A stretch of 60,550 nt of DNA from a virus (IMGVR_UViG_3300042509_001483:1-60550), one strand, 5' to 3'. Shown: positions 16,512 through 59,557, counted from the stretch's first letter. Notes: a model not told the origin generated them from the sequence alone. Numbers and translations are program-made.

Positions 16512-16514
16512 GAA

Positions 16515-39982: not shown

Positions 39983-40229
39983 CGGTTATCTCTTCCCCTG
40001 GGCGACCAGGGGTTTATATAGCCCTCTTTCTGATACGAATTCGTATCGCGCGTGCGGGTTTTAGGCTTTCCGCGGCACCGATTCGCCAAGAATCGTTCTC
40101 GCGCAAGGGATCTCAGCGATTGCTCGTCAAGCTGGACGTTAAACGCAGCAGACAACTCGGCGGTTGGTCACGACCTTGGCATCCACACTTCAGTGGTGTA
40201 AGCCCAATCTCACCCTACGGAGTAACACC

Positions 40230-40391
40230 GTGACCATCAACCCCACCAAGCTGCTCTCTCGCGAAGAGGTTGGCGACAAGATCATGCTCGAGATCCTTGA
40301 TCTCCTTGAGCATGGTCATAGCCAGACTCTTGGAGCGCAGCACCTCCAGGTCATCAAGTCCTACGTGGACGAGATGCTGGAGAACAACTGA
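40230..40391 (+). CDS. Hypothetical early protein
   Basis: GGAG then GTG at 40230 (MTINPTKLLSREEV...). Confidence 0.6.
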   Translation: MTINPTKLLSREEVGDKIMLEILDLLEHGHSQTLGAQHLQVIKSYVDEMLENN

Positions 40392-40697
40392 TCCGTTAAA
40401 GCGGGTGACCAGGTGCAAACCCTGGTCCAGTTATTGCCACCCATTGAAGGTGGCTTATACAACACCATGACTATTCAACAAGAGACAGTAAGCACTACGT
40501 ACGCAGAACTGCGTAAGTACTTTACTGAACAAGAGTTAGATGACGCTGCTGTTATTGCGCGTCATTTACAACACCATGAAGAACACTTGAACTATGCAGA
40601 GATCTACATCCAAGTCTTGCTTGAGATGAGAAGCTGATCCGTCAAAGCGGGAGGCAGGGTGCAAACCCCTGCCCAGTTATTGCCACAACTCAGTGGC
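40386..40697 (+). repeat. Family B: two T-loop three-way-junction elements (40386-40454 and 40632-40697)
   Basis: ARCTGATCCGTYAAAGCGGG-[7 bp stem, loop TGCAAAC]-CAGTTATTGCCAC...GTGGC with compensatory stem changes. Confidence 0.8.
40467..40637 (+). CDS. Hypothetical early protein
   Basis: ATG at 40467 after element B. Confidence 0.6.
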   Translation: MTIQQETVSTTYAELRKYFTEQELDDAAVIARHLQHHEEHLNYAEIYIQVLLEMRS

Positions 40698-40718
40698 ATT
40701 CACCTACACCACACCACC

Positions 40719-40907
40719 GTGATCAAAGGCGAATCCGTATTTGCATCCATCATCGTTACTGCATTTGGGCTAGGCATCCTTGCTGGCCCAGTCGCTGGGT
40801 ACTTCATTGATCGGGCAACTGCCGAGCAGTGTCGTACGCATGACTGGCCTAAGGAGGCTAACCAAGTGCATCGTGATTGGTGCATTACCAACGGCTACAA
40901 GATCTAA
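40719..40907 (+). CDS. Small membrane protein
   Basis: GTG at 40719; TM helix then QCRTHDWP..HRDWC. Confidence 0.6.
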   Translation: MIKGESVFASIIVTAFGLGILAGPVAGYFIDRATAEQCRTHDWPKEANQVHRDWCITNGYKI

Positions 40908-40981
40908 CAGACTCCTGCTCTGGGGACTACGGTCCCCTCAACAGGACTCAACATCCTGTATCCCACTACTAACTCAACACT

Positions 40982-41215
40982 ATGTTGATTTACCAGCCTG
41001 AGTTCGATAGACTCCATCGCGTCATCTGGAATGGAGGTGAAAGCTCTATGCTTCACTTCCAGAAACTGAAAGATGGCGAATGGAAGTACCTCGACACGAT
41101 GTCATTCATGTCAGGGATACCGACAGGTACCAAGGAGTTATACGACGAGATGCGCGAGTACTACAACTACTCTATGACCATGATTCAAGACATTATGTAT
41201 GCGATAGCATTCTGA
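40982..41215 (+). CDS. Hypothetical early protein
   Basis: ORF between structured elements. Confidence 0.65.
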   Translation: MLIYQPEFDRLHRVIWNGGESSMLHFQKLKDGEWKYLDTMSFMSGIPTGTKELYDEMREYYNYSMTMIQDIMYAIAF

Positions 41216-41309
41216 CTCCTGCACTTAACCCTTTCGTTGTGGTATGTATGTACTACGACGGTAGGTTTTCTGCAGGCAATCAAGCCTGCTATTCAACTCA
41301 ACTCAGCTC

Positions 41310-41498
41310 ATGACTGCACTCAACATCCGCAAGAACATTGCTGCTGCACTGTTTAACACAGCGGCAGCTATCGACAATGCCAAGCTTCCTACCAAGGAAG
41401 ATATCGGTACTAAGGTGAATGAGTATCGTCTGCGTGCAGCGGCACTCATGATGCCGAACGATATGGCATTTGTCATCACTCCTAAGCAAGGCAACTGA
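41310..41498 (+). CDS. Hypothetical early protein
   Basis: CAACTCAACTCAGCTC leader. Confidence 0.65.
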   Translation: MTALNIRKNIAAALFNTAAAIDNAKLPTKEDIGTKVNEYRLRAAALMMPNDMAFVITPKQGN

Positions 41499-41500
41499 TC

Positions 41501-41704
41501 ATGCAACGTAATTACTTTTCTGACGCCTGTGTTGCTATCGTTTGTGGGACTGGTCTTGGCTTACTCTTATCTGTTGGAGCGCAGAAAGTTCTCAACAGGC
41601 ACTACAAGGCCACGTGCCACAACCAACCAGGACATAACCTGATCTACACCAAGTCTTTCCTTGGTGATACGTACTACTGCATCGATGCAAAGTACATGAA
41701 CTGA
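41501..41704 (+). CDS. Small membrane protein
   Basis: N-terminal TM helix and a Cys pair. Confidence 0.6.
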   Translation: MQRNYFSDACVAIVCGTGLGLLLSVGAQKVLNRHYKATCHNQPGHNLIYTKSFLGDTYYCIDAKYMN

Positions 41705-41808
41705 TCTCTGCACTTAACCTTTCCGTCTTGATACGAATTCATATCGGACGGTAGGTTTTCTGCAGGGTTCTCCCTGCATACACCACACGACACCACCAGG
41801 ACTCAACC

Positions 41809-42054
41809 ATGACTCCTAAAGCTGTTGAACATCTCCTGACCCAAGACGCTCGTCTGCTCGCCAGGAGAGATGCCCCTTGCATCGACCAAGAACTTGAGGC
41901 GCAGCGTCAAGCTGCTCTCGAGTTGTTCTTCGAGTGGCAAGACGGTATGCGTCAATTCCAAGACCTTGTTCCCTTCGTTGCCATCGTGCAGCGTAAAGTA
42001 GATCTCAACCGGGATCTGCTGCGGTGGGAACGCAAGCAACTGGAACAAGACTGA
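41809..42054 (+). CDS. Hypothetical early protein
   Basis: ORF between structured elements. Confidence 0.65.
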   Translation: MTPKAVEHLLTQDARLLARRDAPCIDQELEAQRQAALELFFEWQDGMRQFQDLVPFVAIVQRKVDLNRDLLRWERKQLEQD

Positions 42055-42126
42055 CGACTACACTGAGGGGCTTCGGCCCTTCTCTGTAGTCCTCAACGAG
42101 GGCTACTACACCATTGCTACTACACT

Positions 42127-42399
42127 ATGGCTATTAGCATTGACCACCACGACATCACGCAGGCATTACAAGAGTTCAAACTTGAGGTGACTGACTATTA
42201 CCTCGAGTTTACTGACCAGTGCATTTATATGTACTGGGTTGCATGCCCCAGTGATATTGAAGAGTATTTAGCAAAAGGTGACTGGGCGTGTCTTGACTTC
42301 CAGATCAAAGGTACATGGAAGTCTGCTGAAGAGCTGTTCGCAGAACCTTTTACAGAACGTCCTTTCACTAACTGCCGTTACATCCTCGCCACTAACTGA
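42127..42399 (+). CDS. Hypothetical early protein
   Basis: ORF track. Confidence 0.6.
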   Translation: MAISIDHHDITQALQEFKLEVTDYYLEFTDQCIYMYWVACPSDIEEYLAKGDWACLDFQIKGTWKSAEELFAEPFTERPFTNCRYILATN

Positions 42400-42400
42400 A

Positions 42401-42613
42401 ATGAAGACTATTTATTCCATGGGAAGAGGCAAGTACATCACACTTGACTCCTATCATTCTTACGGTGAGTCTCATGAGAATCGCCGTTGGTCAGTGTGCA
42501 TTGCCCTCTTCTCCATCATCATCGCCACCATCAGTGCTACAGCACTTCTTGGCGTTGATATCACACAAGTCAATCCTCAACCTACCAAGGAGCAAATCAA
42601 TGCGACTCGATGA
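42401..42613 (+). CDS. Small membrane protein
   Basis: ATG at 42401; one TM helix. Confidence 0.55.
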   Translation: MKTIYSMGRGKYITLDSYHSYGESHENRRWSVCIALFSIIIATISATALLGVDITQVNPQPTKEQINATR

Positions 42614-42947
42614 ACACACACAAGTGCTTGAGGCACGAATCGATGGCTTGCTCAACAAGATCATCGAGAAGTACACCAAGCAATACGGCTATAACGACTT
42701 GGCCTTTGACATTGTTAAAGGCACCAAGTACTACAAGATTATCCAACGATCCATCAAACGAACGAATCTAGGTGGTGATGGTGGCTTTGTCCATGCATTC
42801 ATCCACCGTCAATCAGGTGCTGTCCACAAGCCTGCGTCGTGGAAAGCACCGGCCAAGCATGTGAGATACAATCTGCTTGACGAAGCATCGTATGAGACCT
42901 GTCTCCATAATGCTGACTGTCATGGCGGCTATCTCTACATGAAGTAA
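42600..42947 (+). CDS. Conserved phage early protein
   Basis: AAGGAG RBS; GTKYYKI...VHAFI....G.VHKPASWKAPAKHVRYNL motif widespread in aquatic phages. Confidence 0.75.
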   Translation: MRLDEHTQVLEARIDGLLNKIIEKYTKQYGYNDLAFDIVKGTKYYKIIQRSIKRTNLGGDGGFVHAFIHRQSGAVHKPASWKAPAKHVRYNLLDEASYETCLHNADCHGGYLYMK

Positions 42948-43036
42948 CGTCAATCAACTGGGCAGTTGCGATTGATTCTCAATATCAATTGCAACATAAG
43001 TCCCAGTCCTATCTCAAACACCACAGCAACCAATCA

Positions 43037-43411
43037 ATGCGTACTCGAATCTCAATCGTCAAAGAAGATAGGATCTGGAACCTTAGGTGCCAGGGCTATC
43101 GCTATGACTCCATTGCACAAATCGTTAATTGCAAACCGGTATCCATTACACAAGTCATTAGACGTGTACGTAATCGTCCTCCGTACGAGCAAGATCCTGT
43201 GCGTCGTGGAAGATTTAATTCTTTCTTGAGCGATGCACAGATAGAAGATATTCGTACCCGTAAAGCACACGGTGTACCTGCTTCCGAACTTGCAGAGGAT
43301 TACTACGTCACTATTGCAGCTATCTATCACATCACTTCATATCGCACTTACAAGAATCCTTGTGGTGACGGTGGTTATCAATTCAATTTCAATAACCGTT
43401 TAATGGCCTAA
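43037..43411 (+). CDS. Double HTH DNA-binding protein
   Basis: QGYRYDSIAQIV..SITQVI and LSDAQIEDIR..GVPASELAEDY.VT..AIYHI. Confidence 0.65.
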   Translation: MRTRISIVKEDRIWNLRCQGYRYDSIAQIVNCKPVSITQVIRRVRNRPPYEQDPVRRGRFNSFLSDAQIEDIRTRKAHGVPASELAEDYYVTIAAIYHITSYRTYKNPCGDGGYQFNFNNRLMA

Positions 43412-43478
43412 TCACTGGGCATCCACACTATGTGTGGTGTAAGTCCCATGTTCAATTTTCCACTTACCTCAACTCAAC

Positions 43479-43703
43479 ATGGGCGCACTAATGGATCAGA
43501 CTGAAGACAACAAGCGGTATCACCTCATCATCAACGTTGATGAGAAGTATGCCATCGTCAACGCACTAGCCTTCTATCATGCACATCACACCTTGGGTGC
43601 ACTGATGGATGAGGATGAGCGTGAACAATACATGCTCGCATTCCAAGAAGATGGTCCAACTCTTGTTGATTCTTTAGCAACAAGAGTGGCCAATACCTTC
43701 TGA
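43479..43703 (+). CDS. Hypothetical early protein
   Basis: CTCAACTCAAC leader. Confidence 0.6.
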   Translation: MGALMDQTEDNKRYHLIINVDEKYAIVNALAFYHAHHTLGALMDEDEREQYMLAFQEDGPTLVDSLATRVANTF

Positions 43704-43776
43704 TCCCTGGGCAGCACCGACGTAAGTATGGTGTGTAAGTCCCAGGGTTTATTGTCCATTCACTTCAACTCAAGTA

Positions 43777-43914
43777 ATGCCTGAACTCGATCCCAACTAC
43801 AACGCTGATTTGCTTGACGCCATGGCTGATCTTGCGTACCAGCAAGAACAAGCCATGCGTGAAGAATATGAACTCAACCCACCTGAACTGGAGACCTACG
43901 ATGACCAAGCCTAA
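43777..43914 (+). CDS. Small acidic protein (45 aa)
   Basis: MPELDPNYNADLLDAMADLAYQQEQAMREEYELNPPELETYDDQA after element A. Confidence 0.6.
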   Translation: MPELDPNYNADLLDAMADLAYQQEQAMREEYELNPPELETYDDQA

Positions 43915-44389
43915 GTACACACTGCGTCAAGCATGGGATGACGGTGACATCATTGTCATCCTGATCGCAATCATTTCAATCATCATCACAGAGTTTGCAT
44001 CATGTCTTACATCTCAGAACTCAAGAAGTTCTACCCCAAGTCCTACAAAGCACGCTTTGCAATCAATGCCTACAACGTGCACAAGTACTTTGAGCACAAA
44101 GACCCAACGGTCGTCACGGTCCACGAAACCTATCTCAGGTACGGCGGACCCGAAGAAGGGGGTTGGGATTGGATTCAAGGATACCCAATCCTTACCCATT
44201 GCATCTTCTCCAAGAAGCAAGCAATCCAAACCTACATCCACTACTTTGAAGAGTACGAAATCGAAGAGCAAGCAAGCCTCAGCATCTCAACAACGTTCTC
44301 AAACTATGACATCTGCTTTGGTAGTGACTACGCAAAGCTGTACCCTACAGAACGACCTCGATATTGCTGATGAACAAGCCATTGCCTAG
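43901..44389 (+). CDS. TM protein with Ser/Thr/Lys-rich tail, overlapping 44002-44370
   Basis: GGAG then ATG at 43901 (MTKPKYTLRQAWDDGDIIVILIAIISIII...). Confidence 0.4.
   Translation: MTKPKYTLRQAWDDGDIIVILIAIISIIITEFASCLTSQNSRSSTPSPTKHALQSMPTTCTSTLSTKTQRSSRSTKPISGTADPKKGVGIGFKDTQSLPIASSPRSKQSKPTSTTLKSTKSKSKQASASQQRSQTMTSALVVTTQSCTLQNDLDIADEQAIA
44002..44370 (+). CDS. Conserved hypothetical phage protein
   Basis: YGGPEEGGW...YPTERPRYC motif. Confidence 0.7.
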   Translation: MSYISELKKFYPKSYKARFAINAYNVHKYFEHKDPTVVTVHETYLRYGGPEEGGWDWIQGYPILTHCIFSKKQAIQTYIHYFEEYEIEEQASLSISTTFSNYDICFGSDYAKLYPTERPRYC

Positions 44390-44879
44390 CCAGCAAGAAC
44401 TACAAGCTTTGTTTGAATACAGCCCCACTACGGGGCTGTTTACTTACAAAGTCAAGCCTAATTTCAGAATCAAGATTGGTTCTATTGCTGGCACAGTCAA
44501 GAAGACTGGTAAGTGTAAAGGCTATTGCTTTATTAAAATCAATGGCCAATTGTATCAAGCAAGTCGTCTTGCTTGGCTGTATGTATATGGCATTGATCCA
44601 GGGTATTTAACTGTTGATCACATTGACAGAAATCCTTCGAACAATGCAATAAACAATTTAAGACTTGCAACAATGAGTGAACAATCGTTTAACCGCCACT
44701 CAACAAACAAGTTGGGTGTGCGTGGTGTTTACTACAGTGAAAGCAAAGATGTTTATATTGCTCATGTTAATTTCCGAAAAGCTGGTATATGTACTAGCAA
44801 ACAGTTTGCAACAATAGAAGAAGCATCTGAATGGTATGAAGATATGCGTAAACAATATGGTAAACAGTTTGCTTCCTGA
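44364..44879 (+). CDS. HNH homing endonuclease (HNH_3 plus AP2-like C-terminus)
   Basis: YSPTTGLF, ASRLAWLYVYG, VDHIDRNPSNNAINNLRLAT..Q..NR, GVRGV. Confidence 0.9.
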   Translation: MLMNKPLPSQQELQALFEYSPTTGLFTYKVKPNFRIKIGSIAGTVKKTGKCKGYCFIKINGQLYQASRLAWLYVYGIDPGYLTVDHIDRNPSNNAINNLRLATMSEQSFNRHSTNKLGVRGVYYSESKDVYIAHVNFRKAGICTSKQFATIEEASEWYEDMRKQYGKQFAS

Positions 44880-44882
44880 TTC

Positions 44883-45122
44883 ATGACAACTGCAACACCT
44901 GCACTCAGTATCAATCAACGCAATCTCTATGCGTATTACTTGAACCACAAGAAGAAGTATGGGAACACACCATGCTTTGTACCTAAGCTTCCAGCGCAAA
45001 GCTCAAGGCTTGAACAATATCTCCAGGCCTTGGTGCGACTGGAAGAATACGGATTGATACGTGTAGACAGAAGCAGTGATAACTACACAGCATGGATCAT
45101 GCTTGCACCTAAGAATGCATGA
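44883..45122 (+). CDS. Winged-helix-like small protein
   Basis: LSINQRNLY...LQALVRLEEYGLIRV. Confidence 0.55.
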   Translation: MTTATPALSINQRNLYAYYLNHKKKYGNTPCFVPKLPAQSSRLEQYLQALVRLEEYGLIRVDRSSDNYTAWIMLAPKNA

Positions 45123-45258
45123 CGTAGGTATTTATACTTAATATTGTTCGCTATTCGCAAATAGCGAATACATGCCAATACTTCAGTCATAGCTTCAATC
45201 CTGGGCAGCACCGACGTAAGTACAGTGCGTAAGTCCCAGGCTTTACTGTGATATTTCA

Positions 45259-45891
45259 ATGACACAAGTAACAGGCTCAACACGTGCAGCACAAGGTGGT
45301 AAATCTATTTACTGCCCGCATTGCAACAATCGGACAACTGTTTATCACTTCCAGTGGACAGCGCTTCAGTGCAATCACTGTGAAGCAATGGTAAACAAAC
45401 ACGACTGGTATCTTCAACCCGACTTCACATCAACCATGGAACAAACCAAGCAAACTCCAATTGAAAAGCTCAAGCTTTCCACTGGTATTCACAATATACT
45501 CAAGCGCCATCGTCTTGATTATATTGAACAGATCGTGGACATGAAGATGGAAGACTTTATGTCACTGAATCGATGTGGACAAGCTAAAGCTCAAGAAGTT
45601 ATCCTTGCTCTTTCCAAATTCACTACTCAACACATCATGGCTCAAAACGAATACTCCAAACTGCAAGAAGTGGTAGATCTCCTTAAGGCAATCCAAGAAC
45701 GTGAGAGTAAGCGTCATCAAATGGACGAGCACCTCGATCCGCATACAGCAGATGTTGTGCTAGAGGTGATCGGCATGCTTGAAGACGAGATCGACTATGA
45801 TCCAACACCTAACGAACCTGGTGAACCACCTATGACAATGAATGAAATGCACAGTGCTGCATGGAAAGAACACCATGAGATGCATCGGTAA
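45259..45891 (+). CDS. Zn-ribbon plus RNA polymerase alpha-CTD-like domain plus acidic domain
   Basis: CPHC...CNHC; PIEKLKLSTGIHNILKRHRLDYIEQIV..MEDFMSLNRCGQAKAQEVILAL. Confidence 0.75.
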   Translation: MTQVTGSTRAAQGGKSIYCPHCNNRTTVYHFQWTALQCNHCEAMVNKHDWYLQPDFTSTMEQTKQTPIEKLKLSTGIHNILKRHRLDYIEQIVDMKMEDFMSLNRCGQAKAQEVILALSKFTTQHIMAQNEYSKLQEVVDLLKAIQERESKRHQMDEHLDPHTADVVLEVIGMLEDEIDYDPTPNEPGEPPMTMNEMHSAAWKEHHEMHR

Positions 45892-46044
45892 CAGCCAACT
45901 AGGGGGACTAGTACACAAGTACTTCCCCCCTCAAACTCCCCCGTTGGAGCACCAGGGAATCCTTGGATTTATATAAGACATCCTTATGTTCCAATCCTTG
46001 ACTTCTCTGGTAGACTAACATCGTTAATCAACTCATCTCAACTC

Positions 46045-46254
46045 ATGACTGACAACACTCCCCGCATACCAGACTCTATGGATATGCAAAGACTTCAAGC
46101 TATGCAACTTGTTGCCAAGATGAAGGAATCTGCAGAAAGACATGGCATTGGATTCATTGGTGGATTCATCTCACCTAACGGTGAGAAGTTTGTTATGACC
46201 AACATGACAGACGACGATGACATCAATGCACTAATGCCCGAAGATCTTAAATAA
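46045..46254 (+). CDS. Hypothetical protein
   Basis: CTCAACTC leader. Confidence 0.65.
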   Translation: MTDNTPRIPDSMDMQRLQAMQLVAKMKESAERHGIGFIGGFISPNGEKFVMTNMTDDDDINALMPEDLK

Positions 46255-46256
46255 AC

Positions 46257-46451
46257 ATGAAGAAATCACACGTAAGTTTTGACAAAACTATCGCAGGATT
46301 TAATGTTACCGAGCGCGGTGTGCGCTCGTACAGTAAATCAATTAAGCTTGGTCCGCTCCAGGTCACACTTAATGCTCGTGAATCTGGTGTCCGTGGTACG
46401 ATCAGTATCCCAGGCACAGGACTAAGCATTCCAAGTATTAAATTATTCTAA
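46257..46451 (+). CDS. DUF4236-like small protein
   Basis: KSIKLGP...TISIPGTGLS. Confidence 0.55.
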   Translation: MKKSHVSFDKTIAGFNVTERGVRSYSKSIKLGPLQVTLNARESGVRGTISIPGTGLSIPSIKLF

Positions 46452-46511
46452 AGATCCTGGGCATCCTTACGGTGTAAGTCCCAGGTCTTATCCATCAACT
46501 CAACTCAACTC

Positions 46512-46697
46512 ATGTCTGCTTACGTCAACTACCTCAACATGTTTGATCGCATCAATCTTGCTGCCTGCGCAAAGCGCAGAGCAACAGACAATCTATTGGA
46601 TTCAACTCGTTGGGAAGGCGAGTACGACACAGCACGTCTGTGGATGAAGTACCGCCTTATCAAGACCACCACTCATTCCTACATCGACGAAGACTGA
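46512..46697 (+). CDS. Hypothetical protein
   Basis: (CAACT)3 leader after element A. Confidence 0.65.
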   Translation: MSAYVNYLNMFDRINLAACAKRRATDNLLDSTRWEGEYDTARLWMKYRLIKTTTHSYIDED

Positions 46698-46957
46698 TGA
46701 CTGTACTTGCAATCGAAAACATTGTCTTTGGTGATCACAATGCAACAGTTACAGCAGTTGTTGAAGACATGCGCCTGCTCTATCGGGCGACTCGCTTCGA
46801 GCCTGAAGAATGGGCTCCTGCATTGTGTCAAGCAACTATTGAGCTGGATCCAGAGGAACCGATTCCTCTTGACGAAGATGGCTTCTGCAGCTATCTTGAT
46901 CAGCTCGATCCTCACTGGCAACTCGTTGACACCTCTGACTACGCTCTAGATTCATGA
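46697..46957 (+). CDS. Hypothetical acidic protein
   Basis: TGATG coupling; MTVLAIEN... Confidence 0.6.
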   Translation: MTVLAIENIVFGDHNATVTAVVEDMRLLYRATRFEPEEWAPALCQATIELDPEEPIPLDEDGFCSYLDQLDPHWQLVDTSDYALDS

Positions 46958-47157
46958 TTGGTTTTTCAATTGAATTCAAACGCTGGTACTTTGTACTGCG
47001 TGGTCCCAAGGGTCGAGTATACCTGGCGACTGGTTTTGCTAAACGCATGCCAGTCATAACACTGACTGGTGCTTACATGCTAGACCAGTGCATTGGTACA
47101 TGGCCTGGTGATGAGACTGATGAAGAACTTCTTGATCAGTTGAAAGACATCCGTTAA
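46954..47157 (+). CDS. Hypothetical protein
   Basis: ATGA coupling. Confidence 0.55.
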   Translation: MIGFSIEFKRWYFVLRGPKGRVYLATGFAKRMPVITLTGAYMLDQCIGTWPGDETDEELLDQLKDIR

Positions 47158-47212
47158 TCAAACGTCCTGGACATGACGCTAAACTGTCCTTTCCATTTAC
47201 CTACACCACACC

Positions 47213-48949
47213 ATGAAATTCGCTCTGCCTTCTAACCTTCAGACTGAACTCTTGGCTTATGACCCAAAGCTTAAGGCTTTGGCTAAGCAAGCTAACAAAC
47301 CAGCAGCCAAGAAACCTACGTATCCACTTGGCAAGATTCCTTGTTTGATACCAACGCACATTGTGCGTGAAACTGATCAGCAAGATGCAATTGCTCAGAT
47401 CAATCAGCGTCCAGCACCACAGCGTTATCAAGTCTTTACCAGGCCTGTAGATGTGGCAACACCACAGGCTAGGCTCAAGGTCATTGCCATCTTGTATCAC
47501 TACGAACAGGTGTGGTACGCGGCATGGTTACCTTCCAAGCAAGAGAAAGATCAATATGTGTATGGCCATGCTTACGCATTCAAGAACACATCAACTACAC
47601 AGAAGATTGCACCAACTTGGATATGGAATAGCAAAGATGATTGCGTTGTTCACGACATTGGGCGTGGCTCGCAACTTTTTGTCTACACCAATACAGCAAC
47701 CATAGAAGATATCCGTGGGAAAGATTACGATAGCTGGCGCAGTTACCCATGGCGAGCAGGTAACCTTTACTGCCAAAAGGGTTATACAATTCGTGATAAT
47801 GTTGTCAATGAATTTGATAACAGCCTGAGGGAAGATCTCCCAACATGGGAGGATTCACGTGGATTGTTTGATCGTATACGTTGCAAGAATATCTTTGATG
47901 CAGCAAACATACCATCAATGATGTCAAAGCATCTTGATGAACGTCAAGGCTTGACTGTTGATAACTTCATTGCTGCTTCACTTGCATTCAAAGAAGAACA
48001 TGGTTATAGCTCCATGACATACTCCGTTGTCACAAAAATCCAACACATTGTTACTAAGCCTACCATCAAGAAACTATTGCAAGCAGAGTTAAACCGTAGC
48101 GTTGATGCATACAATGATCCTAATAACAAACAACAGCAACCTATTAAGCAAGGCTTTGCAACCTTTGTTCAAATCATTAATTCAATTGAATGGATCAATA
48201 ACATTTGGCCAGACTGCCCTATTGATTACTATCAGACTTACTTCAAGGAGCTTAAGTATCTTCGCTTGACTGAAGTGCGTATAGGTAGTTCAGTTATACA
48301 AGATACAAACTTAATCAACTGGCTGCGTGAACACATGCCCATTGCATCGTTGTTTACAATCATGCGTAAGTACTTGGATAGACAACTCACTGAATACAAT
48401 GGCCGTTGGGTTGATAACGAGGTTGGCTACCAGCGTCAACGCTTTGGTGAACTCAACGATACATTCTCCATGATGCTTAAGATCCTGCATGTTGGTAATA
48501 CACTGGAGCCACCGAAGCGTTGGCGTTTGACTGAGTTCCATGACTACGTACAATCCGAAGCATGGAAGATTGAGAATCCAAAGGAATCTCTACGGCAAGA
48601 TCTATTCCCTGAACCTATTAAAGTTACACGTCTTGATAAAGTATGGACATTCTTCCAGCCTCATGACACACATCAACTATCCATGTGGGGTCAAGCCGTA
48701 CGTAATTGCGTTGGCTCTGCATCCCACTATGCCGATGACATCAAGAAACGTAAGCACTTCATTGTGTTATGTATGATTGATAACAAACCCACCTTCACAA
48801 TTCAATTGGTTGTGGACCAGGGTATGATGTCGGTTAAGCAGATTGCTGGCGTTGGCAATCGGAGTCTTGACGCATGGGAGCGCGATGCTTACACGGAAGC
48901 TTTCCGTGAGGTCTTGCAGCAACGCGAGAAGCAGCTAGCATGTAGCTGA
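47213..48949 (+). CDS. PcfJ-like domain protein
   Basis: C-terminal EFHDYV...QLSMWGQAVRNCVGS..Y...TIQL...QIAG..N. Confidence 0.75.
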   Translation: MKFALPSNLQTELLAYDPKLKALAKQANKPAAKKPTYPLGKIPCLIPTHIVRETDQQDAIAQINQRPAPQRYQVFTRPVDVATPQARLKVIAILYHYEQVWYAAWLPSKQEKDQYVYGHAYAFKNTSTTQKIAPTWIWNSKDDCVVHDIGRGSQLFVYTNTATIEDIRGKDYDSWRSYPWRAGNLYCQKGYTIRDNVVNEFDNSLREDLPTWEDSRGLFDRIRCKNIFDAANIPSMMSKHLDERQGLTVDNFIAASLAFKEEHGYSSMTYSVVTKIQHIVTKPTIKKLLQAELNRSVDAYNDPNNKQQQPIKQGFATFVQIINSIEWINNIWPDCPIDYYQTYFKELKYLRLTEVRIGSSVIQDTNLINWLREHMPIASLFTIMRKYLDRQLTEYNGRWVDNEVGYQRQRFGELNDTFSMMLKILHVGNTLEPPKRWRLTEFHDYVQSEAWKIENPKESLRQDLFPEPIKVTRLDKVWTFFQPHDTHQLSMWGQAVRNCVGSASHYADDIKKRKHFIVLCMIDNKPTFTIQLVVDQGMMSVKQIAGVGNRSLDAWERDAYTEAFREVLQQREKQLACS

Positions 48950-48963
48950 GTCCGCACGGCTTA

Positions 48964-48996
48964 CCAGCCTTAGCCTCGTTACTAAGGCTGGTTTCT
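48964..48996 (+). terminator. Intrinsic terminator
   Basis: accagccttag-cctcgtta-ctaaggctggt-ttct. Confidence 0.65.
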
Positions 48997-49000
48997 ATCC

Positions 49001-49243
49001 ATGACTGACTACACCGACGATCAACTACTTGCCATGGCTATGGCCAACATTGGTGAGTACATCACAGACAACTCACCACAGTACATCTTGATTGAAGAAG
49101 ATCCTCGTAATGAGGATGACTATGATAGCTGGACTTACGGAATGGAAGTCCTACCTCAAGATCACACTTGGCAGCATGCGTCAATTGACGTAAGCGTAAG
49201 CCCAAGTGATGGGGACGTAGCCCAATCGGAAGTAGGCAAGTGA
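49001..49243 (+). CDS. Acidic hypothetical protein whose 3' end runs through element A into the tRNA
   Basis: ORF track. Confidence 0.5.
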   Translation: MTDYTDDQLLAMAMANIGEYITDNSPQYILIEEDPRNEDDYDSWTYGMEVLPQDHTWQHASIDVSVSPSDGDVAQSEVGK

Positions 49244-49288
49244 CTTAAAATCACTCAAGTACGAGTTCGAATCTCGTCGTCCCTACCA
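49211..49288 (+). tRNA. trnL: tRNA-Leu(UAA) with short variable loop and encoded CCA
   Basis: Acceptor GGGGACG/CGTCCCT; anticodon arm AGTGA-CTTAAAA-TCACT; T arm ACGAG-TTCGAAT-CTCGT; discriminator A then CCA. Confidence 0.92.
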
Positions 49289-49310
49289 ACCCATCCAATC
49301 AATTCACGTC

Positions 49311-49676
49311 ATGCAAATCTTTGCTGCCTTTAAACATCTCATCCCTGAACTACATGCATTCAGTGATGAAGACCAACGTTACAACCTTGGTGCTACATGG
49401 ACTGATAAGAATGGTCTCAGGGATTACCACAACCTTGAGCTGCGTTATCAGTACAACTCCGAGAAGCTTGCCATCGAGCAAGGCCAGCCGCAGCCCGATG
49501 GGTCATGGCAGTACATTGAGCCTTGCGGTCGGGTACACACCATGAGTGCTGACCGTGCCAGGGCATTCATGGAGCAGACGCAAGCGCATGCCACACTCAT
49601 GGTCAACATGCTGGATCGTCTCAAAGACTCCGGCTTGTTGGACCAGGTGGTTGACACGACTGCTCAGCCAACTTAA
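49311..49676 (+). CDS. Hypothetical protein
   Basis: ORF track. Confidence 0.65.
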   Translation: MQIFAAFKHLIPELHAFSDEDQRYNLGATWTDKNGLRDYHNLELRYQYNSEKLAIEQGQPQPDGSWQYIEPCGRVHTMSADRARAFMEQTQAHATLMVNMLDRLKDSGLLDQVVDTTAQPT

Positions 49677-49679
49677 GAT
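49651..49679 (+). promoter_or_regulatory. Sigma70-type promoter
   Basis: TTGACA-N17-TAAGAT. Confidence 0.6.
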
Positions 49680-49700
49680 TCATTTGCCAAGGAACCTATC

Positions 49701-49727
49701 GACCCCTGCGTAAGCGGGGGTCTTTCT
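49701..49727 (+). terminator. Hairpin, putative terminator
   Basis: gacccctgc-gtaa-gcgggggtc-tttct. Confidence 0.6.
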
Positions 49728-49729
49728 CT

Positions 49730-50050
49730 ATGACACACGACTCCATTGATCTTGACCTTGTTGACAAGACCATTGCGTTAATACCAAAGCAAGCTTGGAC
49801 TCAAGTGAGACAAGCAATTGTTACAGCCTTGGTTGATAACATGCCTGGCTCTGTGATCCAACATCTGACTGGTTCTTATGATGACTTTGATCGTGCAGAA
49901 GAAATTCTGTACGATTACTACGAACTTCCTGCACTGTCGCATGAACTAATTGCAGATGCATTCAAGATCATGGGCGAAGTCAATTGTCTTGAACTCCTTC
50001 ATTCATTGAACCTCACTGAAGATGAATTGCAGACAATGCAACAGCAGTAA
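49730..50050 (+). CDS. Hypothetical protein
   Basis: ORF track. Confidence 0.65.
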   Translation: MTHDSIDLDLVDKTIALIPKQAWTQVRQAIVTALVDNMPGSVIQHLTGSYDDFDRAEEILYDYYELPALSHELIADAFKIMGEVNCLELLHSLNLTEDELQTMQQQ

Positions 50051-50728: not shown

Positions 50729-50736
50729 TTACTACA

Positions 50737-51036: not shown

Positions 51037-51239
51037 AAAGCAGGGAGGTTACTGAACTACTTGTTGTCAGTGCTGTGTCTTGCCTAATTGCTTTTGTGTT
51101 TGTTGTGTTGCTTTCTTATGGTGGAAATTCTTCTCCACCTAAAGAACGCTTTGCCATTGTTGATCAGTACCAAGGCTGTGATGTCGTACGGTACACTGAT
51201 CCTTCTAGTCGGTACCACTATCTATTGAAGTGCTCATGA
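51033..51239 (+). CDS. Small membrane protein
   Basis: TM helix; VDQYQGCDVVRY. Confidence 0.6.
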   Translation: MKSREVTELLVVSAVSCLIAFVFVVLLSYGGNSSPPKERFAIVDQYQGCDVVRYTDPSSRYHYLLKCS

Positions 51240-52753
51240 GTAATGCCAATCTTGTTTGGGTAACGCCCAATGCAGAAGAGATGATTGTCAAGATGGCACG
51301 CGTCTCTGCACCCAAGAATCAAGACAACATGGATACCGCACCCAATTTGTTGCGTTATCTGATTAAACATCAGCACTGGTCACCGTACGAAATGGCCAAC
51401 ATGTGTGTTGAAATCAACACAACACGTGCAATCTCACCGCAGATCCTTAGGCATCGGTCCTTCTCGTTCCAGGAATTTTGTTTAGCTGGCAATGTGCGTA
51501 TCACTATCTCAACCGAATCAGGAGTAGTTCAACGCTTGCCTATTGAAGAGTTGTATTCTAAATGGAATAAAAGCTCTTTCCGGGCAAGGTATGCACGTTC
51601 TTATGATCCAGAAGCGGAGCGTTTTATTTCAGCTCCCATACTTTCTGTTTATCAGTCAGGAGAAAAACCTATTTATCAGTACACTATAGAAGCGCCGGAT
51701 TCATACAAAACAATTGACTGTACTCAAGAGCATCGTATTTTCACAAAGGAAAAAGGATTTGTAGCTTTTAAAGAAGCTTATGAACAAGGTTTATCAGTTG
51801 CTTTAAATGGAAAAGAAACTTTTCCTTTGCCTTATCAAAATCCCGATGTTTTAAAAGAGAACGCTTGGATGGGTTCAACAGCTTTTGCTGAAGCGTATGG
51901 AATTAAAGATGTGACTGCACGTAAATGGTTTCGTAAACATGGCATTGTCCCTGCTAAACCAAACAATGCAGCCTCTAGTAGGATTGACATTTCATTTGAA
52001 GCAAAGAAATCTTCATTCATGAAATGGGCAAGATCTACAATGCTTCAGCAAAGCTGTGAGTGTTGTGGGCATGATGGTTCTGTATCGCGTCTTGAATTAA
52101 GCCATATTACTGCACACGATAATAACGAAGAATTATGTTTTGATGAAACTAATTTGCAAACATTATGTGCATCATGCCATCGCAAGTATGACATTGCCAT
52201 ACAAGGCAAACAGTATGGATGGACTTTAGGGATGACTGCTAAATGGGGAAAAATTACAGAAGAAAAATATTTAGGTATTCAAATGACGTACGATATTGAA
52301 ATGGACCATCCAACTCATAACTTTGTTGCCAATGGAATTGTTGTTCATAACAGTCAACGTTACGCAGACACCAGTGAACTTGGCTCAGCTATTATTCCTC
52401 ATCTGCGTCGACAAGACTTTAAGAATCGTCAAAACAGTATTGATGATTTGTCTGCTGATGCAATCAGTGGTTATTACCGTCGCATTAGCAAGTTGTATGA
52501 AGACGCTGAACATCTCTACCGTGAGATGGTTAGCAGCGGCGTTGCAAAAGAATGTGCCAGGTCTATCCTGCCACTTTCAACACAGACCCGTCTCTTTATG
52601 AACGGCACCATCAGATCTTGGATCCATTATCTACAACTGCGGACACATGAATCAACCCAACTTGAACACAGAGAAATTGCAGAAGCAATCAAAGGAATCT
52701 TCTGCAAAGAATTCCCAATCATCGGAGAGGCTGTGTTCTCAACAGATCAATGA
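51236..52753 (+). CDS. thyX: Flavin-dependent thymidylate synthase, intein-containing
   Basis: HWSPYEM, QILRHRSFSFQEF|SQRY, GVAKECARSILP, GTIRSWIHYLQLR, TQLEH. Confidence 0.95.
   Translation: MSNANLVWVTPNAEEMIVKMARVSAPKNQDNMDTAPNLLRYLIKHQHWSPYEMANMCVEINTTRAISPQILRHRSFSFQEFCLAGNVRITISTESGVVQRLPIEELYSKWNKSSFRARYARSYDPEAERFISAPILSVYQSGEKPIYQYTIEAPDSYKTIDCTQEHRIFTKEKGFVAFKEAYEQGLSVALNGKETFPLPYQNPDVLKENAWMGSTAFAEAYGIKDVTARKWFRKHGIVPAKPNNAASSRIDISFEAKKSSFMKWARSTMLQQSCECCGHDGSVSRLELSHITAHDNNEELCFDETNLQTLCASCHRKYDIAIQGKQYGWTLGMTAKWGKITEEKYLGIQMTYDIEMDHPTHNFVANGIVVHNSQRYADTSELGSAIIPHLRRQDFKNRQNSIDDLSADAISGYYRRISKLYEDAEHLYREMVSSGVAKECARSILPLSTQTRLFMNGTIRSWIHYLQLRTHESTQLEHREIAEAIKGIFCKEFPIIGEAVFSTDQ
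51479..52351 (+). mobile_element. Intein (291 aa) with an HNH endonuclease domain
   Basis: Starts CLAG; block B TQEHRIFT; ends TYDIEM..HNFVANGIVVHN then Ser+1; internal CECCG..LELSHI..NLQTLCASCH. Confidence 0.93.
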
Positions 52754-53373: not shown

Positions 53374-53380
53374 GGCTTTA

Positions 53381-53394: not shown

Positions 53395-53456
53395 GGAAAG
53401 TATATGATGATTGATGTATATGATGTCGTTCACCATGTAACACAACTCAAGGTTTA

Positions 53457-53756: not shown

Positions 53757-53776
53757 ACAAACTTGGAGCTACACTA

Positions 53777-54100: not shown

Positions 54101-54207
54101 CTAACAAACTTTGCCGCGCACTAGAACAGTTTAACGACTGATTACTTTTATTAATATATCCGTCCTGGGTATGACGCTAAACTGCCTTCTCAACTCAACT
54201 CAACACC

Positions 54208-54972: not shown

Positions 54973-55034
54973 TTCCGTAGGCACTTGCGGATCAGGTGAA
55001 ATCAGATATCATCTATCTGTCTTTCATCTGATCC

Positions 55035-57069: not shown

Positions 57070-57072
57070 CCT

Positions 57073-57237
57073 ATGGACTTCCTTAACTTCAAACAACCTG
57101 TACTTAATGTTGTTTGTCCTAAGCACGGTAAACATAATCAATATATTGAAAGCACCATTAAAGACCATGAAGGACATTGGTGCATGATCTGTTGGCTTGA
57201 AAGTCTTGGTGATCCATTACCTACGATTGAAGAATAA
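57073..57237 (+). CDS. Small Cys/His protein (54 aa)
   Basis: VCPKHG...HWCMIC. Confidence 0.6.
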   Translation: MDFLNFKQPVLNVVCPKHGKHNQYIESTIKDHEGHWCMICWLESLGDPLPTIEE

Positions 57238-57329
57238 ATCCATCTCCTAATTTGGAGAAAATTAGGAGATGATTAGGAGTTCGTCCTAAGCATGACGTTA
57301 AACTGCTTTAACACAACCCTTTTGATCCG

Positions 57330-58145
57330 ATGAATTACGTTGATGTTTGCGCAATCCTGAACGAGAATCCTCGTCAGGTGTACACCAGTTCAACCACATT
57401 CAACTACTGTGCTGAAGTAACACTTCCGCCGGTTGGCAACAAAGCTCCTACCATCCTTGTCCTCAATGTTTACGGGAAAACCGGAGATGCTTTCAGATCC
57501 CTCAACAAAGGAGACCGTGTGTACATTCACGGCTCCAAGCTACGGTTTGATCTCGAATCAAAGACGTACTCGCTCAATGGAGGAGTTGTTGCTCAAGTTA
57601 CTGAAGCATTCCCTGTCTTCAACGACGTTATCTTGACGGGTCGTTGCATCAAGGACATTGACCAAACAGATGCACGTGCCTTCAAGACAACTGCAGATGG
57701 TTTGATGATTGCCAATCAAACACTGTCAGTTAACACTGGACGCAATCAAGCTGATCTGTTTAACTTTTACGCAATCAACACTGCACAAGATAAGTTCAAT
57801 CAAGCTGAACTTCTTGTGAACATGACGCGTAAAGGCACTGGTCTTACCATTCGTGCCAGGATTGTGACCGATGCCTGGACTGATAAAGAAACCAACCAGC
57901 GCCGTAGCGTTACCAAGCTGCAGCTTGTGCAGATGACACTGGCCCCTAAGACAAGTGAGTCTCAAACAAAACAAGTGACATCCCAAACAACCGTGGCATC
58001 CACGGAGAATGTTGCTAGTCTATGGGGCGGCAAGACCGTTGAGGAGACCAGTGATCCCTGGAATGCAGGCCCCAACACTGGGCTGCCTGATCTCCCCGGT
58101 CAGTACGGCAACGCACCTGAATTCAACGACGAACCCCCATTTTGA
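57330..58145 (+). CDS. ssb: Single-stranded DNA-binding protein, probably two OB folds
   Basis: LNKGDRVYIHG; NDVILTGR...KGTGLTI...DAWTDKETNQRRS; acidic C-terminus NDEPPF. Confidence 0.8.
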   Translation: MNYVDVCAILNENPRQVYTSSTTFNYCAEVTLPPVGNKAPTILVLNVYGKTGDAFRSLNKGDRVYIHGSKLRFDLESKTYSLNGGVVAQVTEAFPVFNDVILTGRCIKDIDQTDARAFKTTADGLMIANQTLSVNTGRNQADLFNFYAINTAQDKFNQAELLVNMTRKGTGLTIRARIVTDAWTDKETNQRRSVTKLQLVQMTLAPKTSESQTKQVTSQTTVASTENVASLWGGKTVEETSDPWNAGPNTGLPDLPGQYGNAPEFNDEPPF

Positions 58146-58399
58146 TGTCAACTCAACCCGAAGATCAATTTACTCTTCTCTATGAGGACGGTAAACGAAA
58201 GGTGCTGCATGAGTTCCAGTGCATTGGTACGGATGAAATTGTTGATGAGTTCATTAACTTCATGCGTGGTGTTGGCCATCTTGAACTGAACATCATCGAG
58301 CGCATGCACGAAATCTCAAAACAGTATCTTGAACTTTATAACTCAAACAAAGAAATGTTTCTTGAGCTTCAACAAGAAGAACTCAACGTAATAGAGTAA
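58142..58399 (+). CDS. Hypothetical protein
   Basis: EF....DEIVDEFINFMRGVG. Confidence 0.6.
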   Translation: MMSTQPEDQFTLLYEDGKRKVLHEFQCIGTDEIVDEFINFMRGVGHLELNIIERMHEISKQYLELYNSNKEMFLELQQEELNVIE

Positions 58400-58453
58400 C
58401 TTCTCGTCCTCTGGTATGACGTTAAACTGCCTGTCTTTAACTACGAAACAATC

Positions 58454-59557
58454 ATGCTTACAGCTCCGACTGACATGATGAGTGAATCCTGGATGGATGA
58501 ACTCGAAGCTGAAACAACCTCTGCCCCTTCTCTGAAAACACCTAACAAAATGACCGCCAACAAAACCTCTGCACTTGCAACACGTGGACTGGATTCCTTC
58601 AAACTTTTTCAAGATAAAAAGTTTGTGTCCGGATACCAGAATCTCGTTACCATCCAACCTCTCAACAAATCAAAGATCCGAGGTTGGTTCGTGCGGAAGT
58701 CAGACCTTGACACTTGTGGATGGAACGCCACTGAAGATCAATTTGCTAAGGGTTCAGTTATCTGGGACTACAAGCAAACTTTTGGTATGGCTCCCAACAC
58801 TTCAATTGAAGAAGGACTCAATTTCACTGAGCCTCGTTTGCAGATCCTTCTACGTTCTCCCCTTATGGTTGAGGAAACCACAGGGATGAGGCAGACGATC
58901 GGGACCTTTGAGGATCCTGATGTCAAGGCTGCATTTGATAACGACAAGCTAGCCGCTGATCTTGCCAATAGCAAAGGTGAGATGTACAAGCGTAAGTACA
59001 GTGTACGTACAAAGTACCTGGTCTATGTCCTGACCGAGGACAACAAGCGTGCTCATAAGATCCCGATGGTGCTCACACTCAAAGGTCTTAACGGTACTGA
59101 TGTCAGCGACAAAGTCAAGCTGTACGAAAAGGAGATGTCCAAATGCTTGAGCAAAGCGCTGGACTCTGAGGTACCTCTGGCATTCAACGAGAAGTTCTAT
59201 GCCACCACTGTGTTTGTACCCGTGCTTGCCAACGAGATGCGAGGTGCTAACAACGTAGAGATCTGTGCAATTGAATCGTTTGAGATTCCTGATTACAGCT
59301 CTCAAGATGAAGCGATTATTTCGCTTAATCGCCTCAGCATCCCTGATGAAGATCGTGAATCAACCTGGAAGTATCAGGACATGTTCAGTGATTACATCAA
59401 TCAACATGCACGGCAAGACGCACAAAAGCTTGGCGGTGCATACGGAATCAAAGAAGGAGTTGAGATCCTTCCTGTCTCTCGGACCACGGACACAGTTGAT
59501 GTGAAGGCATTGCCTGCCCGTGATCCGCTGACTGGTGAGGATGCAGACCTGATGTGA
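58454..59557 (+). CDS. Hypothetical replication-module protein (possibly DUF5895-like)
   Basis: PRLQILLRSPL...KYLVYVL..DN..AH.IP.VLTLKG; adjacent to ssb. Confidence 0.5.
   Translation: MLTAPTDMMSESWMDELEAETTSAPSLKTPNKMTANKTSALATRGLDSFKLFQDKKFVSGYQNLVTIQPLNKSKIRGWFVRKSDLDTCGWNATEDQFAKGSVIWDYKQTFGMAPNTSIEEGLNFTEPRLQILLRSPLMVEETTGMRQTIGTFEDPDVKAAFDNDKLAADLANSKGEMYKRKYSVRTKYLVYVLTEDNKRAHKIPMVLTLKGLNGTDVSDKVKLYEKEMSKCLSKALDSEVPLAFNEKFYATTVFVPVLANEMRGANNVEICAIESFEIPDYSSQDEAIISLNRLSIPDEDRESTWKYQDMFSDYINQHARQDAQKLGGAYGIKEGVEILPVSRTTDTVDVKALPARDPLTGEDADLM

Follow-up and report, generated by a model that had tools for sequence, protein, structure and literature searches.

What separates one gene from the next in a phage arm that is probably transcribed as long multi-gene RNAs? 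The question is raised by the IMG/VR virus record IMGVR_UViG_3300042509_001483, all 60,550 bases of which (completeness estimate 76%) are referred to here as the window. The window is the record of an S-EIV1-like lake cyanophage. Its closest cultured relative is Synechococcus phage S-EIV1, to which 14% of positions 39990-47300 aligns at 73% identity. From about 39.9 kb onward the genes lie on the plus strand. Many small open reading frames (ORFs) come first, and further along this early/replication arm Pfam identifies a PcfJ-like protein, an intein-bearing ThyX, a GP88-family protein, a family A DNA polymerase, an SSB and a DUF5895 protein. A sequence-only reading of the window had placed structured RNA elements of four families, in about 18 copies, at the gene junctions of this arm. 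We found all four families and a total of 18 intergenic copies (P, 5; A, 7; B, 2; C/D, 4; Table 1). We propose, with a probability of roughly 0.5, that these elements act as RNA boundary modules that stop exonucleases or ribosomes between cistrons; both the mechanism and its direction are inferred from sequence. The proposal starts from observed properties of the elements: their folds, coding-strand restriction and spacing, the genes that they accompany, the broad spread of P and the match between P and a viral RNA motif named coremin.

The elements were compared across 20 sources, consisting of the window, S-EIV1 (L001) and 18 related IMG/VR loci of 64-93% identity that were fetched by searching with the PcfJ-like protein. 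Covariance models were built from P copies and from short A copies, and both strands of all sources were searched with them. Covariation was expressed as the percentage of paired cells and compared with a shuffled control and a control in which pairing partners were slid. The P and A alignments were fitted to models and lean toward structure, a bias that does not touch the anchored count of P stem 2 given below; the B and C/D alignments are plain MAFFT alignments and carry no model-fit bias. Rfam 15 at gathering scores returned only a group I intron and tRNA-Leu(UAA) from the window. It matched none of the elements at gathering scores in the window or at E ≤ 5 in 39900-60550, and the sole overlap was a chance-level SpF41 match over B (25.7 bits against a cut-off of 52). 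The motifs had been called unrecognised, and for Rfam this holds for every element, but the core of P matches coremin/xrRNA-C.

P is a predicted 27-nt H-type pseudoknot with a G+C-rich stem 1 of 4 bp, a stem 2 of 5-7 bp and a conserved UUAAAC strand. Its parts follow in the order CGUC, 1-2 nt, the 5' strand of stem 2, 1 nt, GACG, YUAAAC and the 3' strand of stem 2. The word GACGYTAAAC has five exact matches in the window, every one on the plus strand and at an element. The P model gave 79 matches in the 20 sources, 78 of them on the coding strand, and the lone minus-strand match was weak (E 0.019). In the fitted alignment 84.9% of cells were paired, compared with 74.5% after shuffling (0 of 500 shuffles as high) and 25-48% after sliding, and two-sided changes occurred at 8 of 10 pairs. 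Both stems covary. Stem 1 changes from CGUC/GACG to UGUC/GACA in three S-EIV1 copies and to GGAC/GUCC in L013, L014 and L021, and 52 distinct stem-2 helices occur among 106 distinct instances. The five pairs of stem 2 in these instances (526 cells) comprise 432 Watson-Crick, 67 G-U, 6 A-C and 21 other combinations. Because G-U pairs outnumber A-C pairs by 67 to 6, the sense strand is the folding strand. This excess, the sense-strand folds and the compensatory changes that we observed in every family (P, A, B and C/D) bear out the suggestion that selection acts on RNA structure.

Nuclease-blocking RNA knots are known from eukaryotic RNA viruses, and we know of no phage or bacterial counterpart. 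In PMC6546385 and PMC10520033, coremin is described as a 3-4-bp GUC/GAC hairpin whose loop reads YGAD or YGNNAD; a conserved spacer of 10 nt comes next, and a second hairpin behind it is needed to stall the 5'-3' exonuclease Xrn1. As a mechanical block, coremin halts Xrn1 and scanning ribosomes, and it stimulates -1 frameshifting; it occurs in beny- and cucumoviruses and other eukaryotic RNA viruses, plant viruses among them. A Watson-Crick variant, xrRNA-WCC, pairs its loop with the spacer end to give a pseudoknot of 3 bp (PMC6546385, PMC10520033 and PMC10321173). Spacer positions 16-20 are essential, with A20U abolishing resistance (PMC6546385), and one octaloop variant is still resistant (PMC10520033). 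P shares with coremin the core GUC..GAC-GUUAAACU, C as the first loop base and 8 of 10 spacer bases. It also shares the order of stem 1 and A-rich strand, the small size (20-30 nt) and the untranslated or intergenic location. Stem 1 is (C)GUC/GAC(G), as in the first coremin hairpin, in 39-45 of 54 distinct rows per pair. Like xrRNA-WCC, P is an H-type pseudoknot in which the loop pairs with the 3' end of the strand, and its Watson-Crick stem 2 of 5-7 bp shows compensatory changes in all six modelled pairs. The literature searched yielded no published link between coremin and phages and no published exoribonuclease-resistant RNA (xrRNA) tied to RNase J and phage, and PMC12397905 mentions neither phages nor RNase J. 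It also yielded no paper describing P or A in phages.

The elements occupy a regular position between a stop codon, a leader and a start codon. The 3' end of P lies 19-22 nt ahead of the start in 61 of 79 matches, and its 5' end lies 5-6 nt past the stop in 45 of 79. P came no closer than 5 nt to the upstream stop in another 114 IMG/VR contexts, where 5 nt was also the most frequent distance (27 contexts). For A, the corresponding distances are 22-28 nt to the start (67 of 98) and 0-2 nt from the stop (37 of 98). The leaders that follow contain 6% G after P and 8% G after A. Words resembling a Shine-Dalgarno (SD) sequence occur in 2 of 51 distinct P leaders and 5 of 63 distinct A leaders, and they precede 6 of 35 arm genes, which is the 16% background rate. 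A leader word, CAACTCAACTCA (at most two mismatches), occurs 23 times against 7.35 expected, and 0 of 100 shuffles reach 23. Pairing of CAACUC leader words with the 5' end of 16S rRNA was dropped, as it would involve at most 5 bp and a buried region. No sigma-70-like site overlaps any element, and the arm is depleted of such sites (16 against 31.8 expected), which fits long multi-gene transcripts. The cassette of stop, element, SD-less leader and start that had been read from the window is thus upheld, including its spacing. One of the listed sites, at 49.2 kb, is an A copy 2-5 nt ahead of tRNA-Leu(UAA) and not of a gene for a protein. The first P copy sits in the long leader of the first small gene, with an A copy 25 nt further on, and L012, L014, L018 and L023 share this tandem P-A arrangement. 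At one P site (47155 onward), inspected by eye for stop-codon readthrough, the downstream ATG is out of frame.

By sequence, P is not specific to cyanophages and occurs in phages and prophages of many phyla. We searched with a broad pattern that fixes stem 1 and the A-rich strand and leaves stem 2 free. At least 117 IMG/VR stretches carry it, and among the matches listed 131 of 149 have at least four contiguous stem-2 pairs. A prokaryote genome collection contains 82 stretches with such a pattern, and 50 of 90 matches there have at least five stem-2 pairs. The records carrying P are labelled Bacillota, Saccharibacteria, Phytoplasma, Alphaproteobacteria, Chloroflexota, Bacteroidota, Synechococcus and others. 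The model built from cyanophage copies recovered 24 copies in 11 diverse loci, with up to seven in one 6.9-kb piece (L262, labelled a Selenomonadaceae metagenome-assembled genome, MAG), the densest array observed. Two identical P-like copies, in which stem 2 is 6 bp of G and C alone and the linker has 2 nt, were also seen in a chromosome labelled Gloeomargaritales cyanobacterium (L294 and L310), possibly in a prophage. Among cultured phages, 106 records match P and 87 of these are Staphylococcus phages. In Staphylococcus phage B166 (L330:1502-1528), P has the stem 1 CGAC/GUCG and lies in a late structural operon, 9 nt past the stop of the head-morphogenesis gene and 59 nt ahead of the next gene, with scaffold-like and capsid genes downstream. 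Differential RNA stability would be useful at such a place.

In one contig labelled Firmicutes (L305), P adjoins self-cleaving RNAs. All four of its P copies start 6-12 nt past a stop and abut type III hammerheads, which scored 50.7, 49.7, 48.4 and 42.0 bits against an Rfam cut-off of 48.5. Four tandem units, each made of a gene, a stop, P, a hammerhead and a leader of ~140 nt with an SD sequence, occupy 3.6 kb there (L305:2089-5672, minus strand). A search of L305 with Rfam at E ≤ 10 gave no match on the four P copies themselves. Adjacency of P and hammerhead was seen in L305 only: 13 other IMG/VR loci, from aquatic phages, had no ribozyme beside P, and L317 has a RAGATH-1 hammerhead ~600 nt from P. 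Perreault et al. in 2011 are said to have found hammerheads clustered between phage and prophage genes. Phage hammerheads (RF00008) occupy the same place in an operon as P, between genes and just past the stop, but the window holds no ribozyme detectable with Rfam and P has no known catalytic core.

The A element consists of CUGGGCA, a variable hairpin and RUAAGUCCCAG, and its conserved, asymmetric internal loop sets CA opposite RUAAGU. The two halves stand 8 to ~50 nt apart across copies, with pairing kept. Of the 73 distinct copies whose inner segment measures 8-14 nt, 45 belong to a 35-nt form with an outer stem of up to 8 bp and a 3-bp inner stem. The A model gave 98 matches in the 20 sources, all 98 on the coding strand. 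It recovers six of the seven window copies at E ≤ 1 and misses the one at 49.2 kb; homologues of the weak first copy in L018, L023, L012 and L014 have E values of 9e-5 to 2e-3. In the fitted alignment 81.1% of cells were paired (68.3% shuffled, 23-54% slid), and two-sided changes occurred at 8 of 11 pairs. The arrangement of A and tRNA-Leu, with a gap of 0-3 nt, recurs in 11 of 12 tRNA-bearing relatives, the exception being L017. An eighth A copy had been reported at 16.5 kb. It is present on the minus strand after a stop, but it is marginal and folds no better than shuffled sequences. Judged by eye against consensus sequences, the internal loop of A fits neither a K-turn, nor the UAA/GAN motif, nor the 11-nt tetraloop receptor.

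B and C/D also lie at stop codons. In all copies of B the upstream stop codon is inside the closing helix, and where CUGA changes to UUAA or UUGA the opposite strand changes to match. Pairing in 36 B sequences was 98.5% (82.0% shuffled, 23-49% slid), with two-sided changes at 12 of 15 pairs. B has a heptaloop, UGCAAAC, that we take by eye to be T-loop-like, in what is presumably a small tRNA-shaped junction. We do not call it a tRNA, as ARAGORN and the Rfam tRNA model return 49211-49288 alone. C/D starts 3-4 nt past the stop and, by its complementarity, holds two mutually exclusive pairings, with complementarity kept in both. The long-range pairing with the inner hairpin was 96.0% paired (78.2% shuffled, 33-53% slid), with two-sided changes at 7 of 13 pairs. 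The alternative local hairpin is the weakest case of covariation, in part because six rows are misaligned: 78.8% paired, 71.2% shuffled (1 of 500 shuffles as high), 22-46% slid and two-sided changes at 2 of 6 pairs. The downstream start is unpaired in both states. A palindrome, GATACGAATTCGTATC or a variant of it differing by 1-2 nt, forms the apical hairpin of long C/D (41731-41746) and also occurs in the first leader (40033-40048), as it does in many relatives.

For 327 element instances in the collected loci, the ORFs that follow were clustered; the loci had been gathered with element patterns, so the counts describe association and not frequency. The ratio of P to A is 35:3 before PcfJ-like genes, 27:1 before SSB, 15:1 before GP88 and 10:0 before DUF5895. 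The ratio of A to P is 36:1 before the gene for a protein resembling the C-terminal domain (CTD) of the RNA polymerase alpha subunit, 36:0 before that for a 66-aa protein and 25:5 before that for a 104-aa protein. The preference of element for gene class is strong but not absolute: of the 20 clusters that contain two or more distinct proteins, seven have orthologous genes preceded by A in some instances and by P in others. The exchange of A and P and the A copies adjoining tRNA-Leu argue against a role that is purely translational or specific to a gene class.

These observations can be accommodated in a model of boundary modules. Each non-overlapping junction of the multi-gene RNA would carry a compact folded module followed by a leader of ~20 nt, which cannot fold because it has almost no G. 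The modules would remain folded between the terminating upstream ribosome and the initiating downstream ribosome and would bring processive machines to a halt at the border of the cistron: exoribonucleases and, in the case of P, ribosomes as well. Each gene or tRNA would gain its own protected RNA end and its own lifetime. By analogy with coremin and Xrn1, the enzyme that P meets in a cyanobacterium may be RNase J. Ribosomes would never open P, which would be packed as tightly as terminating and initiating ribosomes allow. The floors of at least 5 nt past the stop and ~19 nt before the start fit a rigid P that stays outside the ribosome footprints, and the spacing of P would correspond to two ribosome half-footprints. 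A, B and C/D lie at, near or inside the stop codon, so each terminating ribosome must open them. They may be translation-sensitive versions of the boundary function and may report upstream translation. Elements also stand directly 5' of RNA cut sites, P before the hammerheads of L305 and A before the RNase P site of tRNA-Leu. The coremin-like core, the placement at cut sites, the exchange of A and P and the spread in unrelated phages argue for a generic barrier over an operator specific to a gene class. The analogy with coremin, the context in B166 and the tandem P-A pair at 40.1 kb suggest that the downstream RNA is shielded from a 5'-3' enzyme such as RNase J, and the placement before cut sites and the fidelity of P to stops suggest that the 3' end of the upstream RNA is shielded.

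Several points weigh against this model, and the first of them concern the resemblance to coremin. The P loop has 7-9 nt, begins with CU or CC (position 2 is U or C) and ends in A followed by U, A or C, which is not the YGAD or YGNNAD of coremin. Spacer position 20 is a G paired in stem 2, whereas coremin needs an A. Coremin has a second hairpin after its spacer; none stands behind P in the window, where the leader has 6% G, and in L305 that place is taken by a hammerhead helix. Stem 2 has 5-7 bp in P compared with 0-3 in coremin, and P occurs in DNA genomes with bacterial hosts, in several intergenic copies per genome, whereas coremin belongs to eukaryotic RNA viruses. We therefore do not file P as a member of coremin, from which it differs in the loop rule, spacer position 20, the length of stem 2 and the missing second hairpin. 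Other points concern its distribution. Outside cyanophages, 26 of 36 P copies have a stop within 22 nt, whereas only 12 of 37 have a start within 30 nt; the next start is often over 70 nt away, with P standing upstream of a conventional SD site. RNase J exceeded its cut-off in two of five P-carrying genomes, one more had a 320-bit sub-threshold match and two had none (four of the five are labelled as MAGs, with completeness and contamination not reported); the Firmicutes genome with P and hammerheads had no RNase J match. The direction of protection is ambiguous as well. Where a hammerhead or the tRNA follows, the upstream product would carry the element at its 3' terminus, as expected of a barrier against 3'-5' exonucleases, whereas coremin blocks from the 5' side. 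The strong class preference also fits class-specific regulators (of PcfJ-like, SSB and GP88 genes for P and of the alpha-CTD-like gene for A), and the conserved unpaired nucleotides in A, B and C/D suggest a specific partner. Finally, no RNA run was listed among the sequencing runs that contain 39990-49900.

One alternative we regard as unlikely, though as the best of the alternatives: the elements could be translational operators or enhancers, with each family binding its own phage or host protein and so governing how a temporal class of genes is translated. P, for example, might be an operator of the replication genes under repression by the phage SSB, in the way that gp32 of T4 acts on its own mRNA, or the folds might recruit the 30S subunit or protein S1 and so stand in for an SD sequence. 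The fixed distances to the start, the SD-less and G-poor leaders, the conserved unpaired nucleotides in A, B and P and the association of families with genes, P with its four classes and A with small early genes and the alpha-CTD-like gene, would all be expected of operators, and the association is kept in S-EIV1. The T4 gene 32 mRNA operator is itself a 5' pseudoknot with an unstructured leader (PMC3014915). Like it, P in front of SSB forms an H-type pseudoknot that borders an unstructured leader on the 5' side, but P lies ~20 nt from the start compared with about 40-70 nt, precedes at least four other families (PcfJ-like, GP88, DUF5895 and others), is present in phages of many phyla and swaps with A. 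We rejected P as an autogenous operator of the gene 32 type because it precedes many gene families. Operators in general are hard to reconcile with A directly before a tRNA in the window and its relatives, with the exchange of A and P before orthologous genes and with P copies far upstream of ordinary SD sites outside cyanophages. Adjoining hammerheads would cut P off the downstream gene, and a lineage-specific repressor is unlikely for an element found in phages of many phyla.

Somewhat less probable still are signals for an endoribonuclease (RNase E, RNase III, an RNase P-like or a phage enzyme) that would cut the structures to give single-gene RNAs, as in T7. The elements stand at almost all non-overlapping junctions, A has a conserved asymmetric internal loop on a variable hairpin, B presumably resembles a tRNA in shape and other phages place ribozymes at the same positions. 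The RNase III sites of T7 early RNA and of SP82/SPO1 are repeated hairpins with about two turns of interrupted helix. A shares with them the form of repeated internal-loop hairpins between early cistrons, but its helices are much shorter and its conserved loop sequence is different. The analogy to T7 and SPO1 drawn by the sequence-only reading therefore fits poorly: with ~8+3 bp, the commonest form of A is too short for an RNase III site by the standard of about two helical turns, and we rejected it as a site of the T7 type. B is not a tRNA by ARAGORN or Rfam, and cleavage on the 5' side of its closing helix, at the edge, would take away the upstream stop codon. In L305 the hammerhead supplies the cut, so P need not be a cleavage signal.

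We consider it very improbable that the elements are riboswitches for small ligands, with P (about the size of preQ1-I) or the two-state C/D tuning replication genes to a metabolite. The compact P pseudoknot has highly conserved unpaired nucleotides and C/D has two exclusive pairings, both with complementarity kept, but no Rfam riboswitch matches even at E ≤ 5-10. The single nucleotide joining stem 2 to stem 1 of P varies (U, A or C), P has no expression platform, its leader is unpaired in every state and many copies per genome precede unrelated genes. The Pistol ribozyme and preQ1-I were considered for P on account of their P1-UUAAA-pseudoknot layout and were rejected, as neither model matched and P has no P2/P3 stem.

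The elements also lie near breaks in synteny. Ends of synteny blocks fall within 15 nt of an element in 67 of 309 cases, compared with 7.0% of the region (3-fold enrichment), and 101 of the 309 fall in intergenic DNA, which makes up 14% of the region; 55 of these 101 are at elements, compared with a coverage of 43%. PeSL cassettes of T4-like phages join a sigma-70-like promoter (-35/N17/-10) to a stem-loop, end in an SD sequence and start codon and sit at indel or exchange boundaries (PMC4122927). The cassettes described here likewise repeat a stem-loop, leader and start among small early genes of a plastic region with synteny breaks nearby, but they have no -35/-10 promoter and no SD sequence, and what is conserved in them is a covarying RNA fold. 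Their identification as PeSLs was rejected because they lack a promoter and an SD sequence, and PeSL-like recombination seems unlikely, the enrichment of break ends at elements being no greater than that of intergenic DNA in general. Repeats that work as DNA, whether promoters with TAAACT of P as a -10 box (the depositors of B166 annotated its P site as a BPROM-predicted promoter), hairpin promoters or recombination cassettes, are the least probable explanation, given the dearth of sigma-70-like sites, the half-spacing of A that varies from 8 to ~50 nt with pairing kept, the G-U excess that marks the sense strand as the folding one, the lack of an SD sequence and the near absence of break-end enrichment at elements within intergenic DNA.

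Table 1. Elements, leaders and the tRNA gene of the window, with positions in nt
Feature	Position	Strand	Context	Form and score
P copy 1	40125..40149	+		stem 1 CGUC/GACG, stem 2 variant GCUG/CAGC; found by pattern and model; 28.5 bits, E 3e-5
P copy 2	47163..47189	+	5 nt past TAA 47155-47157; 23 nt ahead of PcfJ-like ATG 47213	45.4 bits
P copy 3	54161..54187	+	20 nt ahead of GP88-family gene (54208)	42.6 bits
P copy 4	57282..57308	+	21 nt ahead of SSB gene (57330); site kept in S-EIV1 (L001:24991)	43.1 bits
P copy 5	58405..58432	+	5-6 nt past TAA; 21 nt ahead of DUF5895 gene (58454)	35.8 bits
P leaders	47190-47212, 54188-54207, 57309-57329, 58433-58453	+		G-poor, SD-less
A copy 1	40175..40208	+		CUUGG/CCAAG outer-stem variant; 15.7 bits, E 0.17; fold z -0.31 (weak)
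A copy 2	42958..43006	+	before 124-aa helix-turn-helix-like gene (43037)	long apical hairpin; 25.1 bits; z -5.63
A copy 3	43415..43449	+	starts 3 nt past stop; gene at 43479 next	27.8 bits
A copy 4	43705..43747	+	directly past TGA 43701-43703	29.9 bits; z -3.66
A copy 5	45200..45240	+	before 210-aa alpha-CTD-like gene (45259)	32.9 bits
A copy 6	46455..46485	+		minimal form, 3-bp inner stem and tetraloop; 52.2 bits; z -3.27
A leader, example	46486-46511	+		contains CAACUCAACUCAACUC
A copy 7	49165..49208	+	ends 2 nt ahead of tRNA-Leu	CUUGG variant; z -3.26; missed by model (E ≤ 1)
Marginal A-like copy	16479..16515	-	at stop of minus-strand ORF 17351-16515	by eye; z +0.18; missed by model at E ≤ 1
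tRNA-Leu(UAA)	49211..49288	+	only non-coding gene behind an element	Rfam and ARAGORN
B copy 1	40386..40454	+	UGA 40389-40391 in closing helix	three-way junction 40386-40432, then hairpin 40436-40454
B copy 2	40632..40697	+	UGA 40635-40637 in junction	junction 40632-40678, then hairpin 40682-40697
C/D copy 1, short form	40913..40960	+		X, GC hairpin, X', conserved loop ACUCAACAU, X2
C/D copy 2, long form	41216..41290	+		CCUGCA..AACC..long hairpin..GGUAGGUU..CUGCAGG, then CCUGC-closed hairpin
C/D copy 3, long form	41706..41778	+		repeat and pattern matches
C/D copy 4, short form	42056..42106	+		all three X segments changed jointly: GACUACA / UGUAGUC / GGCUAC

The window has further features near the elements and elsewhere. 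Its gene order is mosaic when 39990-58500 is compared with L001 and L006-L023, and the A element at 43706-43751 is most like an A that stands before a different gene in L012. The 210-aa early protein (45259-45891, plus strand) has an RNA polymerase alpha-CTD-like region (PF03118, 30.1 bits), and its gene is preceded by A in 36 of 37 cases. An HNH_3 homing-endonuclease-like gene (44364-44879, plus strand) lies among the early genes, and a related HNH_3+AP2 gene stands behind P in other loci. The ThyX gene (51230-52753, plus strand; Thy1, 136.8 bits) is split by an intein-like stretch containing an HNH endonuclease domain; the intein score, 26.1 bits, is below the Pfam cut-off of 35.8. The late arm contains the group I intron (RF00028, 90.3 bits, 21049-21291, minus strand). 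The divergent region at 39040-39670 has several TTAGG(G)TAAAAC-like words, seen by eye, and two terminator-like hairpins lie near the divergence of the arms (39412-39431 and 39995-40012); both are candidate early promoters or operators.

A bolder form of our model, to which we give appreciably less than even odds, is that P is a true phage xrRNA, the same knot as the coremin of plant and fungal RNA viruses, and able to stall RNase J as well as ribosomes in hosts ranging from cyanobacteria to staphylococci. With A, B and C/D it would then make up an RNA "punctuation code" that protects the end and sets the lifetime of each cistron or tRNA in a phage operon, and it would represent the first xrRNA class common to phages and eukaryotic viruses.

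The A, B and C/D elements are uncatalogued folds, and their covariation is clean enough for new Rfam families. The cassette architecture bears on SD-less translation in cyanobacteria, as each start stands behind a leader that is built unpaired. If P acts like coremin, phages would set the stability of their RNA gene by gene inside operons with a 27-nt module, and this one module would work in hosts as distant as Synechococcus and Staphylococcus. P would also offer biologists a portable stabiliser or insulator for bacterial RNA, and the use of a single knot across domains of life would itself call for an explanation.

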